Positions 55,730-63,737 of a stretch of 64,000 nt of DNA are shown here, piece by piece. The notes under the pieces are model-generated. The model worked only from the letters and a program-made list of their open reading frames with translations. It had not been told where the DNA came from and did not search any database. Positions within the stretch are counted from its first letter, which is position 1; each line of letters opens with the position of its first letter. The DNA comes from Escherichia coli. Its GTDB lineage: Bacteria; Pseudomonadota; Gammaproteobacteria; Enterobacterales; Enterobacteriaceae. The translations under genes were made by a program, and so were the position numbers. Where the stretch lies: NCBI RefSeq assembly GCF_003018255.1, contig NZ_CP027440.1, one strand, 5' to 3'.

Positions 55730-56440
55730 ATGAACGCTGAGCGTAAATTTCTTTTTGCCTGTCTTATTTTTGCGCTGGTCATTTACGCTTTCCACGCTTT
55801 CGGTTTATTCGAGCTGCTCACCGATTTACCTCACTTACTGACACTCATTCGCCAGAGCGGATTGTTCGGTTATAGCCTCTATATTCTGTTATTCATCATT
55901 GCCACCCTCTTTCTGTTACCAGGAAGCATACTGGTGATCGCTGGAGGGATAGTTTTTGGCCCGCTCTTAGGGACACTACTATCATTAATTGCCGCCACGC
56001 TGGCCTCCTCGTGCTCATTCCTGCTGGCGCGCTGGCTGGGACGTGATTTACTGCTGAAATACGTTGGCCATAGCCATACCTTTCAGGCCATTGAAAAAGG
56101 CATTGCGCGTAACGGTATTGATTTTCTTATTCTGACCCGCTTAATCCCGTTGTTTCCTTACAATATTCAAAATTACGCTTACGGATTAACCACAATCGCC
56201 TTCTGGCCTTATACCCTTATTTCGGCACTCACAACCCTGCCCGGTATTGTTATTTATACCGTGATGGCAAGCGATCTCGCCAATGAAGGCATTACGCTGC
56301 GCTTTATTTTACAACTCTGTCTGGCGGGCCTGGCACTGTTTATTCTCGTCCAGCTCGCAAAACTCTACGCCCGACACAAACATGTGGATCTGTCTGCTTC
56401 GCGCCGCAGCCCACTTTCTCACCCCAAAAATGAAGGATAG
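55730..56440 (+). CDS. ydjX: DedA/TVP38-family inner-membrane protein
   Basis: ORF-track frame trimmed to ATG 55730 (MNAERKFLFA...), 236 aa, polytopic. Confidence 0.85.
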   Translation: MNAERKFLFACLIFALVIYAFHAFGLFELLTDLPHLLTLIRQSGLFGYSLYILLFIIATLFLLPGSILVIAGGIVFGPLLGTLLSLIAATLASSCSFLLARWLGRDLLLKYVGHSHTFQAIEKGIARNGIDFLILTRLIPLFPYNIQNYAYGLTTIAFWPYTLISALTTLPGIVIYTVMASDLANEGITLRFILQLCLAGLALFILVQLAKLYARHKHVDLSASRRSPLSHPKNEG

Positions 56441-56444
56441 AACG

Positions 56445-57122
56445 ATGTTGCAACATTATTCAGTGTCATGGAAAAAAGGACTGGCTGCACTCTGCTTACT
56501 GGCTGTTGCTGGGCTTAGCGGCTGCGATCAAAAAGAGAATGCGGCTGCAAAAGTGGAATACGACGGACTTTCGAACAGCCAACCGCTGCGTGTCGATGCC
56601 AATAACCATACGGTAACCATGCTGGTGCAAATTAATGGTCGTTTCCTCACCGACGACACTCGTCACGGTATTGTGTTTAAAGATGGCTCCAACGGACATA
56701 AATCGCTGTTTATGGGTTATGCGACCCCGAAAGCATTTTATGAAGCCCTGAAAGAGGCAGGTGGTACGCCGGGCGAAAACATGACGATGGATAATAAAGA
56801 AACGACTCATGTCACAGGCAGCAAACTGGATATTTCGGTCAACTGGCAAGGGGCGGCAAAAGCGTATTCCTTCGATGAAGTGATTGTTGACAGTAATGGC
56901 AAGAAACTGGACATGCGCTTTGGCGGTAATTTAACGGCAGCAGAAGAGAAGAAAACGGGTTGCCTGGTGTGTCTGGATAGCTGCCCGGTCGGCATCGTCA
57001 GCAATGCAACATACACTTATGGTGCGGTGGAAAAACGCGGCGAAGTGAAATTCAAAGGCAATGCCTCAGTTCTCCTGGCGGATAACACGCTGGCAACGGT
57101 TACCTTTAAAATCACCGAATAA
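56445..57122 (+). CDS. ydjY: Predicted lipoprotein with C-terminal Cys cluster
   Basis: ORF-track frame trimmed to ATG 56445, 4 nt after the ydjX stop; signal peptide with lipobox LSGC; CLVCLDSCPVG motif; 225 aa. Confidence 0.85.
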   Translation: MLQHYSVSWKKGLAALCLLAVAGLSGCDQKENAAAKVEYDGLSNSQPLRVDANNHTVTMLVQINGRFLTDDTRHGIVFKDGSNGHKSLFMGYATPKAFYEALKEAGGTPGENMTMDNKETTHVTGSKLDISVNWQGAAKAYSFDEVIVDSNGKKLDMRFGGNLTAAEEKKTGCLVCLDSCPVGIVSNATYTYGAVEKRGEVKFKGNASVLLADNTLATVTFKITE

Positions 57123-57135
57123 AGCAGGATAACGG

Positions 57136-57843
57136 ATGATGAAGATGCAATCGCGTAAAATCTGGTACTACCGTATAACCCTCATCATCCTGTTGTTCGC
57201 TGTGCTGCTGGCATGGGCGCTGCTTCCCGGCGTCCATGTGTTTATCAATCGCAGCGTTGCGGCGTTTGCCGCCGTGGACCAACAGGGTATAGAACGCTTT
57301 ATTCAGTCTTACGGCGCACTAGCGGCAGTTGTCTCGTTCTTGTTGATGATTTTACAGGCCATTGCTGCACCGCTACCTGCGTTTTTGATCACCTTTGCCA
57401 ATGCGTCGCTGTTTGGTGCGTTCTGGGGCGGCTTACTGTCGTGGACCAGTTCGATGGCCGGCGCGGCACTGTGCTTTTTTATCGCCAGAGTGATGGGCCG
57501 CGAAGTGGTGGAAAAATTAACCGGCAAAACCGTACTTGACAGTATGGACGGCTTTTTCACTCGCTACGGCAAACACACCATCCTGGTATGTCGGTTATTG
57601 CCTTTTGTCCCTTTCGATCCAATCAGCTATGCTGCCGGTTTGACTTCAATACGTTTTCGCTCGTTTTTTATCGCCACCGGGCTTGGTCAATTACCGGCGA
57701 CTATTGTTTATTCCTGGGCGGGCAGCATGTTAACAGGCGGTACTTTCTGGTTTGTCACCGGACTGTTTATTCTGTTTGCCCTGACCGTGGTGATTTTTAT
57801 GGCGAAGAAAATATGGCTTGAGCGCCAGAAGAGGAATGCCTGA
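57136..57843 (+). CDS. ydjZ: DedA/TVP38-family inner-membrane protein
   Basis: 235-aa polytopic ORF; paralogous in architecture to ydjX. Confidence 0.9.
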   Translation: MMKMQSRKIWYYRITLIILLFAVLLAWALLPGVHVFINRSVAAFAAVDQQGIERFIQSYGALAAVVSFLLMILQAIAAPLPAFLITFANASLFGAFWGGLLSWTSSMAGAALCFFIARVMGREVVEKLTGKTVLDSMDGFFTRYGKHTILVCRLLPFVPFDPISYAAGLTSIRFRSFFIATGLGQLPATIVYSWAGSMLTGGTFWFVTGLFILFALTVVIFMAKKIWLERQKRNA

Positions 57844-61728: not shown

Positions 61729-61794
61729 CGCAAAGTTTTTCTCAATGCGTCAGTTCAGAATGGCGCACTCAAAACTACAATGTCGGGATTTTCG

Positions 61795-63102
61795 ATGAAA
61801 CGTGTTTCTCAAATGACCGCGCTGGCAATGGCTTTAGGGCTGGCTTGCGCTTCTTCGTGGGCCGCTGAACTGGCGAAGCCTCTTACACTTGACCAGCTTC
61901 AACAACAAAATGGCAAAGCGATAGATACTCGCCCCAGCGCGTTTTATAACGGCTGGCCACAAACCTTAAATGGCCCTTCTGGTCATGAACCTGCCGCCTT
62001 AAACCTCTCTGCTAACTGGCTCGACAAAATGAGCACCGAACAGCTCAACGAGTGGATCAAGCAACATAACCTGAAAGCCGATGCTCCGGTGGCGCTGTAC
62101 GGTAATGACAAAGATGTCGACGCCGTCAAAAAGCGACTGCAAAAAGCAGGTTTTACGCATATCTCCATTCTGAGTGACGCGCTAAGCGAACCTTCCCGTC
62201 TGCAAAAACTGCCGCATTTTGAGCAGCTGGTTTATCCGCAATGGCTGCACGACCTGCAACAAGGTAAAGAGGTTACGGCGAAACCTGCCGGTGACTGGAA
62301 AGTCATTGAAGCGGCCTGGGGCGCTCCTAAGCTTTACCTTATCAGCCATATTCCCGGCGCTGACTACATCGATACCAACGAAGTGGAAAGCGAACCGCTG
62401 TGGAACAAAGTTTCTGATGAACAACTAAAAGCGATGCTGGCAAAACACGGCATTCGCCATGACACCACGGTCATTCTGTACGGGCGTGACGTATACGCTG
62501 CAGCGCGTGTGGCACAAATTATGCTCTACGCTGGCGTGAAAGATGTCCGCCTGCTGGACGGCGGCTGGCAAACCTGGTCCGACGCGGGACTGCCCGTTGA
62601 GCGCGGAACGCCACCGAAAGTGAAAGCGGAACCGGATTTCGGCGTGAAGATCCCGGCACAACCGCAACTGATGCTTGATATTGAACAAGCGCGTGGACTG
62701 CTGCATCGCCAGGATGCATCGCTGGTGAGCATTCGTTCGTGGCCAGAATTTATCGGTACGACCAGCGGTTACAGCTATATTAAACCAAAAGGTGAAATAG
62801 CCGGAGCACGTTGGGGACACGCTGGTAGCGACTCGACGCATATGGAAGATTTCCATAACCCGGATGGCACCATGCGTAGCGCCGATGATATTACCGCTAT
62901 GTGGAAAGCATGGAATATCAAGCCAGATCAGCAAGTTTCATTCTACTGCGGCACCGGCTGGCGCGCGTCAGAAACCTTTATGTACGCACGCGCAATGGGC
63001 TGGAATAACGTCTCCGTTTATGACGGTGGCTGGTACGAATGGAGCAGCGATCCAAAAAATCCGGTAGCAACCGGTGAACGCGGCCCGGACAGCAGTAAAT
63101 AA
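61795..63102 (+). CDS. ynjE: Periplasmic multi-domain rhodanese (thiosulfate sulfurtransferase)
   Basis: ORF-track frame trimmed to ATG 61795 (MKRVSQMTALAMALGLACASSWAAE...) with signal peptide; C-terminal active-site Cys context CGTGWRA; 435 aa. Confidence 0.9.
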   Translation: MKRVSQMTALAMALGLACASSWAAELAKPLTLDQLQQQNGKAIDTRPSAFYNGWPQTLNGPSGHEPAALNLSANWLDKMSTEQLNEWIKQHNLKADAPVALYGNDKDVDAVKKRLQKAGFTHISILSDALSEPSRLQKLPHFEQLVYPQWLHDLQQGKEVTAKPAGDWKVIEAAWGAPKLYLISHIPGADYIDTNEVESEPLWNKVSDEQLKAMLAKHGIRHDTTVILYGRDVYAAARVAQIMLYAGVKDVRLLDGGWQTWSDAGLPVERGTPPKVKAEPDFGVKIPAQPQLMLDIEQARGLLHRQDASLVSIRSWPEFIGTTSGYSYIKPKGEIAGARWGHAGSDSTHMEDFHNPDGTMRSADDITAMWKAWNIKPDQQVSFYCGTGWRASETFMYARAMGWNNVSVYDGGWYEWSSDPKNPVATGERGPDSSK

Positions 63103-63110
63103 CATTGCAA

Positions 63111-63737
63111 TTACTGACGCTGGAGCGACTTCAGCGTCAGATACCCACTCCACACCCGCGTAAAGGTCGTCATCCAGCACAACGCACCAAATACCCACGC
63201 AAACCACGGAAAACAGGCCGGAAAGAGGCAACTCAGAACAAACAGCAAAATCGTCTCGCTGCCTTCGGTTAAGCCGCCCAGATAATAAAACGATTTATGC
63301 GCATAACCGGGATTATCAATCTGATGTTTCGCCGCCAGCGCAGCAAAAGCGAGAAAACTGCTGCCCGTGCCGATAAACGCAAACAACAGCCAGCCTCCGG
63401 CCAGCGCGTTTTGTTCTGGTGCGGCGAGAATAAAACCAAACGGCACCAGCGCGTAAAAGAGAAAATCGAGAGAAATATCGAGAAAGCCGCCCGCGTCGGT
63501 AAGTCCTCTGCGCCGCGCCAGCGCACCGTCCAGACCATCAAGCAGCCTGTTCAACAAAATGACGATTAGCGCCGCCAGATACCAGCCCAGCGCCAGAAAC
63601 GGCAGTGCCAGCACGCCGATGGCAAATCCCACTAATGTTAAACCATCTGGCGTGATGCCGGGTTTATCCAGCACCTTCACACACTGATGCAACAAAGGTT
63701 TAATTCGGGGATGAAGATGGCGGTCTAGCACAGGCAC
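63111..63737 (-). CDS. ynjF: CDP-alcohol phosphatidyltransferase-family membrane protein
   Basis: 208-aa ORF with the family motif D-G-x2-A-R...G-x3-D-x3-D (LDGLDGALARRRGLTDAGGFLDISLD). Confidence 0.85.
   Translation of the reverse strand: MPVLDRHLHPRIKPLLHQCVKVLDKPGITPDGLTLVGFAIGVLALPFLALGWYLAALIVILLNRLLDGLDGALARRRGLTDAGGFLDISLDFLFYALVPFGFILAAPEQNALAGGWLLFAFIGTGSSFLAFAALAAKHQIDNPGYAHKSFYYLGGLTEGSETILLFVLSCLFPACFPWFAWVFGALCWMTTFTRVWSGYLTLKSLQRQ

Follow-up and report, generated by a model that had tools for sequence, protein, structure and literature searches.

The window analysed here is a stretch of 64,000 nucleotides of Escherichia coli DNA (contig NZ_CP027440.1 of assembly GCF_003018255.1), and close to its end it carries nine genes, ydjX, ydjY, ydjZ, ynjA, ynjB, ynjC, ynjD, ynjE and ynjF (Table 1). 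They encode two DedA paralogues, a lipoprotein with a cysteine cluster, an AhpD-like protein with a CxxC motif, an ATP-binding cassette (ABC) importer, a rhodanese and a CDP-alcohol phosphatidyltransferase; a preliminary description of this DNA had already named these families, and the family matches reported below agree with it. From comparison with other bacteria we conclude with good confidence that ydjX to ynjF are one functional unit, homologous to systems built on YdjY and DedA proteins in anaerobes. What appears to be new is the pairing of YdjY with one type of DedA protein across phyla, inside clusters that handle arsenic and selenium; this envelope system is rare and patchy in its distribution, and the E. 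coli locus appears as a cut-down version of it.

All nine frames were re-derived from the window and are intact at the positions given previously; the 63737 recorded then for ynjF corresponds to another possible start codon, a GTG that precedes the RefSeq start by two codons. The RefSeq order is identical: xthA, ydjX, ydjY, ydjZ, ynjA, ynjB, ynjC, ynjD, ynjE, ynjF (on the opposite strand) and nudG. From ydjX to ynjD the successive junctions measure +4, +13, −1 (TGATG), +9, −28 and −1 (TAATG) bp. The TGATG at ydjZ/ynjA, the 28-bp overlap of ynjB and ynjC and the TAATG at ynjC/ynjD had all been read exactly, and the claim of packing with 4-bp gaps or overlaps holds for the overlaps and the +4 gap but not for the two gaps of 9 and 13 bp. 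Downstream, 66 bp separate ynjD from ynjE, and the stops of the convergent ynjE and ynjF lie 8 bp apart.

The seven genes from ydjX to ynjD are one transcription unit, as had been proposed from the sequence; this is based on their tight packing and on the published operon. A genome-wide study of FNR lists ydjXYZ-ynjABCD as a directly FNR-activated operon with a site at −60.5, and ynjE as a separate directly FNR-activated gene with its own promoter and a site at −41.5 (PMC3688515). A one-mismatch FNR-box-like site, TTGAGAAAAATCAA, is seen here 110 bp upstream of the ydjX ATG, where it is the sole match with two mismatches or fewer, against a background of seven one-mismatch sites in the whole window; binding and FNR-dependent expression are taken from the published study. 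Upstream of ynjE, no FNR box with two mismatches or fewer was found in 61500-61800. Weak induction of ynjABCD by BaeR overproduction has also been reported (PMC2731931). The locus, its operon structure and its regulation are already known, and the earlier judgement that this region is under-described stands for its function and not for the locus as such.

Of 5426 complete E. coli genomes, 5424 match the surrounding 9 kb (55000-64000) with an identity of 90-99%, and 5392 contain this stretch essentially in full. Presence in nearly every genome argues that the gene arrangement is not due to chance. The top identity among these genomes is 98.8%, and 89 of them match at 90-95% only; the source strain hence stands somewhat apart, in this interval, from the sequenced complete E. 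coli genomes. GC content over the locus (49-56%) is unremarkable and gives no signal of horizontal transfer, and an Rfam search of 55400-64000 found no family and hence no riboswitch. Between the ynjE and ynjF stops (63102-63111) there is no terminator-like hairpin, and the 3' ends of the two transcripts probably overlap; a 2025 paper on overlapping transcription, ExcludonFinder (PMC12288877), is said to mention both genes. E. coli selD lies 4.3 kb past ynjF, outside the window, in the order ynjF, nudG, ynjH, gdhA, topB, selD (NZ_AP045067.1, 2472725-2473768; locus L082, 22726-23769), which may be coincidence.

Table 1. Genes and regulatory features of the ydjX-ynjF locus, in positions of the 64,000-nucleotide window
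Feature	Position	Strand	Description
FNR-box-like site TTGAGAAAAATCAA	55607-55620	+	1 mismatch to TTGAT-N4-ATCAA; xthA-ydjX gap
ydjX	55730-56440	+	DedA/TMEM41-type (COG0398) inner-membrane protein, 236 aa
ydjY	56445-57122	+	lipoprotein, 225 aa; YdjY domain (NF040466 / PF27149)
ydjZ	57136-57843	+	DedA/TMEM41-type inner-membrane protein, 235 aa
ynjA	57843-58391	+	carboxymuconolactone-decarboxylase/AhpD-family protein, 182 aa
ynjB	58401-59567	+	periplasmic solute-binding protein, 388 aa (family NF008633)
ynjC	59540-61075	+	fused double ABC permease, 511 aa; 28-bp overlap with ynjB
ynjD	61075-61728	+	ABC ATPase, 217 aa
promoter-like hexamers TTCAGA-16-TACAAT	61754-61781	+	candidate ynjE promoter in the ynjD-ynjE gap; consensus match only
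ynjE	61795-63102	+	secreted three-domain rhodanese, 435 aa
ynjF	63111-63731	-	CDP-alcohol phosphatidyltransferase-family membrane protein, 206 aa; convergent with ynjE

YdjY matches its family (NF040466 / PF27149) with 139.8 bits against a cutoff of 50. Its lipobox, LSGC with Asp at +2, predicts a location in the inner membrane, facing the periplasm. The protein carries the motif C173-x2-C176-x3-C180 (CxxCxxxC), which together with RFGGN is invariant in an alignment of YdjY homologues and which is present in 100 of 110 full-length family representatives. No fold relative of YdjY was found in the PDB, and a literature search found no mention of a "YdjY domain" or of PF27149. The UniProt-style name of YdjY homologues, 4Fe-4S ferredoxin, was rejected, as YdjY has neither the CxxCxxCxxxCP motif nor the ferredoxin fold. 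The longest open reading frame (ORF) containing ydjY (56283-57122, + strand, 279 residues) has its ATG within the last part of ydjX; the RefSeq start, at 56445, yields the signal peptide of a lipoprotein. Database records are inconsistent about this start, with entries of 246 and 279 residues (P0002; AFDB A0A192C7N9 and Q3Z298).

Homologues of YdjY are rare: 1.84 billion representatives contain 389 clusters of them at 50% identity, and 127 of about 100,000 species genomes had a confirmed match in a scan with two peptide patterns, which divergent YdjY proteins escape. Among Enterobacterales the protein was found in Escherichia, Citrobacter (sp. R56, a C. freundii assembly) and "[Enterobacter] lignolyticus". 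The other hosts, all of them anaerobic or microaerophilic, are Finegoldia, Peptostreptococcus, Gemella, Facklamia, Catonella, Clostridium, Thermincola, Sulfurospirillum, Campylobacter concisus, many Desulfobacterota and a spirochaete. Identity to E. coli YdjY is nevertheless 46-60%. YdjY is fused to rhodanese domains in either order (P0269, P0270, P0276, P0351; AFDB A0A942RMC6 and A0A934E6M3) and to a YdjZ-type DedA protein (P0312). Other architectures join it to a fatty-acid-hydroxylase-type membrane domain (P0358), place two YdjY domains in tandem (P0241, P0248) or, in P0286, let YdjY be followed by four repeats of an unassigned domain of about 100 residues.

YdjX and YdjZ are DedA paralogues with 28% identity, and the VTT/DedA domain PF09335 is recorded on their Klebsiella orthologues (69% and 63% identical, respectively). 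Published classifications of the DedA superfamily give its COG0398/TMEM41 branch two E. coli proteins, YdjX and YdjZ. YdjZ-type proteins of E. coli, Bacillota, Campylobacterota and Desulfobacterota share mostly 50-60% identity across phyla (range 45-60%), with about 85 positions conserved at 90% or more; P79/P81 and P156 are kept. Cys113 is present in 54 of 54 such proteins and Cys152, which immediately precedes RLLPF, the motif of re-entrant loop 2, in 50 of 54. Alanine replaces Cys152 in four of the 54 and in the DedA-YdjY fusion P0312, and the Klebsiella and Edwardsiella orthologues retain both cysteines. YdjX is the less conserved paralogue: its relatives in other phyla are 28-39% identical (48% in one) and have no conserved cysteine. 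In Desulfobacterota an HdrD-like domain (part of NF045663) is fused N-terminally to the YdjX-type protein; in Bacillota and Campylobacter the two are separate. The Cys-bearing, YdjZ-type DedA protein is the universally retained core, common to every variant that we observed. An assignment to UptA, the undecaprenyl-phosphate flippase (NF052604), is not supported by score, with YdjX scoring 28.6 bits and YdjZ 36.2 bits against an equivalog cutoff of 250.

The gene neighbourhoods extend this pairing. ORFs were called in 80 loci and clustered, and recurrent clusters were named with NCBIfam; the counts that follow are lineages, out of 43 non-Escherichia lineages, in which the gene lies within 10 kb of ydjY. 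A DedA gene is present in 37 and a small multi-pass membrane protein, free (about 129 or 143 residues) or as an N-terminal fusion to the YdjZ-type protein, in 31. Less frequent neighbours are an HdrD-like CCG/dicluster protein (15), the set ArsS/TIGR04282/TIGR04283 (10, in three phyla), a YnjB-like binding protein with split YnjC and with YnjD (9), a rhodanese (8), an MprF-like flippase domain (6), a MacB/FtsX-type ABC system (6), a YnjF-like gene that always directly adjoins YnjBCD-like genes (5), a C-GCAxxG-C-C (seleno)protein (5), SelD (4, namely Facklamia and three Desulfobacterota) and YedF (4). Such an analysis had been recommended in the preliminary description. It shows that the linked genes recur, and it does not support a scope limited to sulfur, given the ArsS, ArsM, SelD and YedF neighbours.

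Clusters that combine ArsS with these genes occur in Campylobacter concisus, Sulfurospirillum, Facklamia, Catonella, Thermincola, Bacillus benzoevorans, Syntrophus and others, and one of them includes ArsM. This ArsM gene lies inside the YdjY/DedA/ArsS cluster of Facklamia lactis (L073, 12067-12669, − strand) and has an in-frame TGA at the conserved ArsM cysteine (MYGT-U-VAGAI); with selenocysteine read as cysteine its product scores 280.9 bits against an NCBIfam cutoff of 263, which identifies it as an ArsM selenoprotein. It is followed by selD, a YedF-C-terminal-like gene, selB and selA, and the Facklamia clusters also hold CcdA and ResA-like thiol reductant genes. Another selenoprotein, with a UxxC motif, is a PrdB-like reductase that is specific to YdjY clusters (cluster c34, at L062, L071, L073, L074, L078 and L080, including Facklamia and Bacillus benzoevorans). 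It is about 240 residues long, and 85-90 conserved codons lie beyond its in-frame TGA (LLSPG-U-YICHQSVGLIQ). Read-through of TGA at these loci is confined to the PrdB-like protein and the single ArsM; no selenocysteine was found in their YdjY or ArsS homologues, and the ArsS copies use cysteine.

The small membrane proteins form two related families with a shared motif, VWLEMRIH. Their genes immediately follow ydjY, or, in many Bacillota, they make up the N-terminal part of a fusion with the YdjZ-type protein. The 129-residue type occurs at loci L016, L025, L035, L040, L059, L063 and L064 and the 143-residue type at L023, L029, L034, L038, L041, L045-L047, L050, L053, L069 and L076; neither has an NCBIfam match or an E. 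coli counterpart. Gemella and Finegoldia possess YdjY and the fusion of small membrane protein and DedA only, without ArsS and with no lipid enzyme nearby.

Variation within Enterobacterales shows which parts of the locus travel together. In Klebsiella pneumoniae the xthA-nudG interval holds ydjX-ydjZ-ynjA-ynjB-ynjC-ynjD-ynjE and ynjF (L083, 8651-15958). Edwardsiella hoshinae has only ynjA and ynjF, overlapping by 8 nucleotides, ynjE on the other strand and one YdjZ-type DedA gene (L084, 10001-13335); this set adjoins a LysR-type regulator gene. Comparison of the two argues that ynjA, ynjE and ynjF together with a Cys-bearing DedA gene are the enterobacterial core, and YdjY and the ABC importer are separable modules. 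That ynjE and ynjF belong functionally with the operon is supported by this compact Edwardsiella set, by the rhodanese-YdjY fusions and by the relatives of both genes that stand beside YdjY and DedA in other phyla.

YnjE has a predicted signal peptide that ends in SWA, followed by AE, and the active-site loop FYCGTGWR. The active-site cysteine lies in a six-residue loop, C-G-T-G-W-R, of the last of the three rhodanese domains. The protein is about 98% identical, with a few substitutions, to the crystallised K-12 protein (PDB 3IPO/2WLR). The next solved relatives, aligned end to end at E 1e-88, are the "Sulfurtransferase" chains 6KTV/6KVW/6H98, which share the loop and an SGY.YIK segment with YnjE and which we take to be EanB, the anaerobic ergothioneine synthase. 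YnjE belongs with the EanB-like three-domain rhodaneses, and its structure has been cited by the Seebeck group among "EanB-like enzymes" without assigned function (PMC9516567). The protein is periplasmic, was expressed in the cytoplasm only after removal of its signal sequence, acts poorly on thiosulfate and 3-mercaptopyruvate and has no known physiological substrate (PMC10215317). This accords with the earlier remark that the substrate of the system is not defined, as does the finding that YnjB has no close solved or named relative.

YnjA matches the Pfam family CMD (PF02627, E 5.3e-8) and thus belongs to the AhpD/carboxymuconolactone decarboxylase family. Its motif is C-x-C-x-x-C (C-L-C-E-F-C), with C-E-F-C in E. 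coli and C-A-F-C in Edwardsiella, and its PDB relatives are PA0269, Atu0492, Bmp8 and AhpD. The top NCBIfam match, NF053654 "YciW-related (seleno)protein", reaches 102 bits, below the cutoff. On these grounds YnjA is predicted to be a cytoplasmic thiol-disulfide oxidoreductase. Its orthologues are confined to Enterobacterales; distant homologues (about 50% identity), found at L085 and L086 in metagenomes, stand among unrelated genes, so that the linkage is restricted to that order, where ynjA is translationally coupled to ydjZ in E. coli and to ynjF in Edwardsiella.

For YnjB, no PDB relative was found by sequence search at E 0.01; a profile search gave only weak PotD-like and 4EDP matches, with the thiamine-binding TbpA (2QRY) at E 0.46. 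Relatives of YnjB with 33-38% identity adjoin YdjY/DedA in eight Bacillota lineages, and in Bacillota the double permease YnjC is represented by two separate genes. The top NCBIfam models for YnjC and YnjD are putative aminoethylphosphonate (PhnT2, PhnU2) and thiamine (ThiQ) transporters, with scores far below the equivalog cutoffs. YnjF belongs to the CDP-alcohol phosphatidyltransferases: PF01066 is recorded on its Klebsiella and Edwardsiella orthologues, and the motif D-x2-D-G-x2-A-R-x7-G-x3-D-x3-D is intact in the E. coli protein, whose sequence DGLDGALARRRGLTDAGGFLDISLD fits with x7. Its top score, 64 bits for archaetidylinositol-phosphate synthase, is below the cutoff, no equivalog cutoff is reached, and there are weak matches to the phosphatidylinositol-phosphate (PIP) synthase structures 6H53 and AF2299. 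The five lineages in which YnjF-like genes directly flank YnjBCD-like genes are Bacillota (L021, L039, L045, L053 and L058).

What do these proteins do together? The gene order, conservation, neighbourhoods, fusions and motifs were observed here and the regulation comes from the literature; each transport or chemical step in the following proposal, the element concerned and the ligand of YnjB are our interpretation. The recurrence of ArsS, ArsM, SelD, YedF and selenoprotein genes points to arsenic and/or selenium rather than to plain sulfur. A lipid theme is suggested by the genes to which YnjF is tied (YnjBCD in Bacillota, YnjA in Edwardsiella), by the MprF-like flippases and by the kinship of the DedA proteins with TMEM41. 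Tentatively, we propose a mechanism of two modules, which we regard as possible rather than probable: a thiol relay that would handle thiophilic arsenic or selenium species under anaerobic conditions, and a sub-module for import and phosphatidyl transfer formed by YnjBCD and YnjF.

In the first module the periplasmic, EanB-like YnjE and the CxxCxxxC motif of YdjY would capture the thiophilic species. Candidates are arsenic(III), an organoarsenical and selenium at the level of a selenotrisulfide or perselenide, alternatives that our data do not separate; three thiolates are the classic ligand set of As(III). YdjZ, through Cys113 and Cys152, would together with YdjX pass the species through the inner membrane, and the CxxC protein YnjA would release it reductively inside, a role that in other phyla may fall to the HdrD-like CCG/iron-sulfur domain, fused or adjacent to the YdjX-type protein. 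In the second module YnjBCD would import a polar alcohol-type compound, to which YnjF would add a phosphatidyl group from CDP-diacylglycerol, and the resulting special phospholipid could be moved between leaflets by the DedA proteins. In carriers of ArsS, TIGR04282 and TIGR04283 the head group would presumably be of the 5-deoxy-5-(metalloid)-ribose type. E. coli, without ArsS-type enzymes, would rely on an imported compound, and its role may be uptake or salvage and not synthesis. To our knowledge, no enzyme has been assigned to the phosphatidyl-transfer step of arsenosugar phospholipids.

The most novel form of this proposal makes YdjY and YdjZ a trans-membrane thiol relay of a kind not recognised before, on a TMEM41/DedA scaffold, which would import a thiophilic element under anoxia, either selenium or arsenic(III) destined for organo-arsenic lipids. 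YnjE would load the element, YnjA or the HdrD-like domain would release it reductively, and YnjBCD with YnjF would make the matching phospholipid. This version is quite unlikely to be right. With selenium as the element, the relay would supply the high-affinity route of uptake that is still described as unidentified in reviews (PMC9312934).

Several observations weigh against the two-module mechanism. In the 64-kb window tblastn gave no match at E < 1e-3 for ArsS (TIGR04167), ArsM, TIGR04282/3, the HdrD-like protein, the small membrane proteins, SelD or YedF, and function in E. coli may have diverged from that of the large clusters. The Klebsiella operon has no ydjY and Edwardsiella has no ydjY, ydjX or ABC importer; YdjY is therefore dispensable for the role of the enterobacterial core. 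ArsM was seen at a single locus, and the adjacency of SelD, YedF, SelA and SelB in Facklamia may merely serve the selenoproteins encoded by the cluster. The lineage counts are uncorrected for phylogeny, and many of the loci are short metagenomic contigs. DedA proteins that have been characterised move lipids and not ions or thiol adducts. Finally, a literature search found no arsenic, selenium or lipid experiment on these E. coli genes; for TIGR04167 and TIGR04282 it found only passing mentions without bearing on the locus.

Four further explanations, and a fifth that concerns the importer, must be set against this proposal. The unit may deal with sulfur only, that is, with envelope sulfane sulfur as persulfide, polysulfide or thiosulfate, in which case YnjE would make or carry a persulfide, YdjY would accept it and the DedA proteins and YnjA would move and reduce it; in a variant, YnjE might sulfurise an imported heterocycle, as EanB does. 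This comes close to the envelope sulfur or redox handling first suggested for the locus, a suggestion that the thiol chemistry fits but that is too narrow, since the neighbourhoods also contain metalloid, chalcogen and phospholipid genes. The EanB-like architecture of YnjE, the rhodanese-YdjY fusions, the thiol-rich partners, the kinship of YnjA with YciW and AhpD and the CcdA and ResA-like genes of Facklamia all speak for sulfur. YnjE, however, is almost or wholly inactive on thiosulfate and 3-mercaptopyruvate, and when it was put back into a rhodanese-free strain sulfane sulfur was barely restored (PMC10215317). The recurrent ArsS, ArsM, SelD and YedF neighbours and YnjF would be left unexplained, and we consider sulfur alone rather unlikely.

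An account in terms of lipid alone appears similarly doubtful. YdjX and YdjZ would be scramblases or polyprenyl-phosphate flippases for an anaerobic phospholipid made by YnjF, with a head group brought in by YnjBCD, and the cysteines and the rhodanese would be structural or regulatory. The eukaryotic members of the TMEM41 family are lipid scramblases, and the DedA proteins characterised to date move lipids, among them the undecaprenyl-phosphate flippases to which YdjX and YdjZ show weak, UptA-like similarity. The intact motif of YnjF and its adjacency to YnjBCD in Bacillota fit as well, as do the MprF-like flippase and MacB/FtsX-type genes nearby and the fatty-acid-hydroxylase-type domain fused to YdjY. 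On the other hand, the UptA scores of 29-36 bits are remote from the cutoff of 250, Gemella and Finegoldia keep YdjY and the DedA fusion with no lipid enzyme in the vicinity, and a chemistry of redox reactions or thiophiles is what the HdrD-like fusions and the invariant cysteines of both YdjY and YdjZ demand.

The same cysteines could instead make YdjZ an electron conduit resembling CcdA or DsbD, in which Cys113 and Cys152 would carry reducing equivalents from YnjA or the HdrD-like protein to the YdjY triad and YnjE, so as to keep both reduced in the periplasm, and no substrate would cross. In favour are a pair of conserved membrane cysteines that is peculiar to the YdjZ type, a CxxC or HdrD-like partner in the cytoplasm and a conserved, outward-facing cysteine triad. 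Yet the Facklamia clusters hold separate CcdA and ResA-like genes too, the YdjX type, to which the HdrD-like domain is fused, lacks a conserved cysteine, and position 152 is alanine in 4 of 54 YdjZ-type proteins and in P0312. On this evidence a conduit is improbable.

It is very unlikely that YnjE is a cytoplasmic sulfur donor for molybdenum-cofactor synthesis that stands by the operon incidentally. Myers et al. name ynjE "molybdopterin synthase sulfurtransferase", and control by FNR would suit anaerobic molybdoenzymes (PMC3688515), but YnjE is made with a signal peptide that can be cleaved off and has been regarded as periplasmic (PMC10215317), the YdjY/DedA core is repeatedly accompanied by YnjE-like rhodaneses and by rhodanese-YdjY fusions, and Edwardsiella and Klebsiella keep ynjE with DedA, ynjA and ynjF genes.

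YnjBCD is annotated as a putative thiamine transporter in KEGG-style pathway databases. That it imports thiamine or a thiamine-like compound amid unrelated neighbours is extremely unlikely, and we rejected this candidate: YnjD and YnjC score on the ThiQ, PhnT2 and PhnU2 models and YnjB falls in the broad ThiB/PotD solute-binding class, but the ThiQ scores are 134.7 bits against a cutoff of 245 and 133 against 298, the YnjB profile shows no TbpA relationship (E 0.46 for 2QRY), no thiamine pyrophosphate (TPP) riboswitch or other Rfam family lies in 55400-64000, the operon is under FNR control (PMC3688515), and relatives of YnjBCD co-occur with YdjY, DedA and YnjF in distant phyla.

As a whole, these comparisons bear on nine genes that nearly all complete E. 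coli genomes carry and that still have no assigned function, among them the two closest bacterial relatives of TMEM41B and Tvp38, human proteins of autophagy and lipid scrambling. If the thiol relay were real, it would give DedA proteins a role beyond lipid flipping, suggest a way in which gut anaerobes might acquire selenium or handle organo-arsenicals and supply candidate genes for the unexplained steps of arsenosugar-phospholipid formation. Even if the relay fails, the names "thiosulfate sulfurtransferase", "4Fe-4S ferredoxin-type" and "putative thiamine transporter" are misleading and should go.

It is useful, finally, to set the locus beside systems that are known. YnjBCD resembles ThiBPQ in its architecture of binding protein, fused double permease and short ATPase, and differs from it in falling below the cutoffs of the Thi models and in the lack of a TPP riboswitch in 55400-64000. 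The phosphatidylcholine synthase (Pcs) pathway pairs a choline ABC importer with a CDP-alcohol phosphatidyltransferase, and the pairing of YnjBCD with YnjF resembles it, although YnjF reaches only 18-19 bits on phosphatidylcholine synthase models. YnjE is like the chains that we take to be EanB in its end-to-end alignment with them (E 1e-88) and in its active-site loop; unlike EanB it is secreted, it has no EanA/EgtD-type methyltransferase at its locus in E. coli and no activity on trimethylhistidine is known for it.

Within the DedA superfamily, which includes UptA-type proteins (COG0586) and the TMEM41B/VMP1/Tvp38 scramblases, YdjX and YdjZ share the VTT/DedA domain and are placed with TMEM41/COG0398. 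The YdjZ type is set apart from both groups by its two conserved cysteines and by its unusually high conservation across phyla, and its pairing with a Cys-triad lipoprotein, YdjY, is a feature that has not been described for other DedA proteins. In mercury uptake by the Mer system a periplasmic CxxC protein, MerP, hands the ion to a membrane cysteine pair in MerT or MerC and from there to a cytoplasmic cysteine of MerA. The logic proposed here would be the same, with an outward-facing Cys-motif protein, a membrane protein with a cysteine pair and a cytoplasmic CxxC protein or disulfide reductase. The likeness is one of analogy: neither in sequence nor in fold is there any kinship with Mer, no PDB entry is related to YdjY by fold, and the place of MerT or MerC in the membrane is taken by a DedA/TMEM41 protein.

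The closest comparison is with the set that NCBIfam labels "arsenosugar biosynthesis", the radical S-adenosylmethionine (SAM) (seleno)protein ArsS and the two glycosyltransferase-like proteins TIGR04282 and TIGR04283, which form co-directional clusters with YdjY, with YdjX/YdjZ-type DedA proteins and with YnjBCD-, YnjF- and YnjE-like genes. E. coli differs in having no ArsS, TIGR04282, TIGR04283 or ArsM, so that there is no radical-SAM step, and in having YnjA in place of the HdrD-like protein. Judged by its gene content, the E. coli locus is an associate or reduced relative of the ArsS-type systems and not a member of them.

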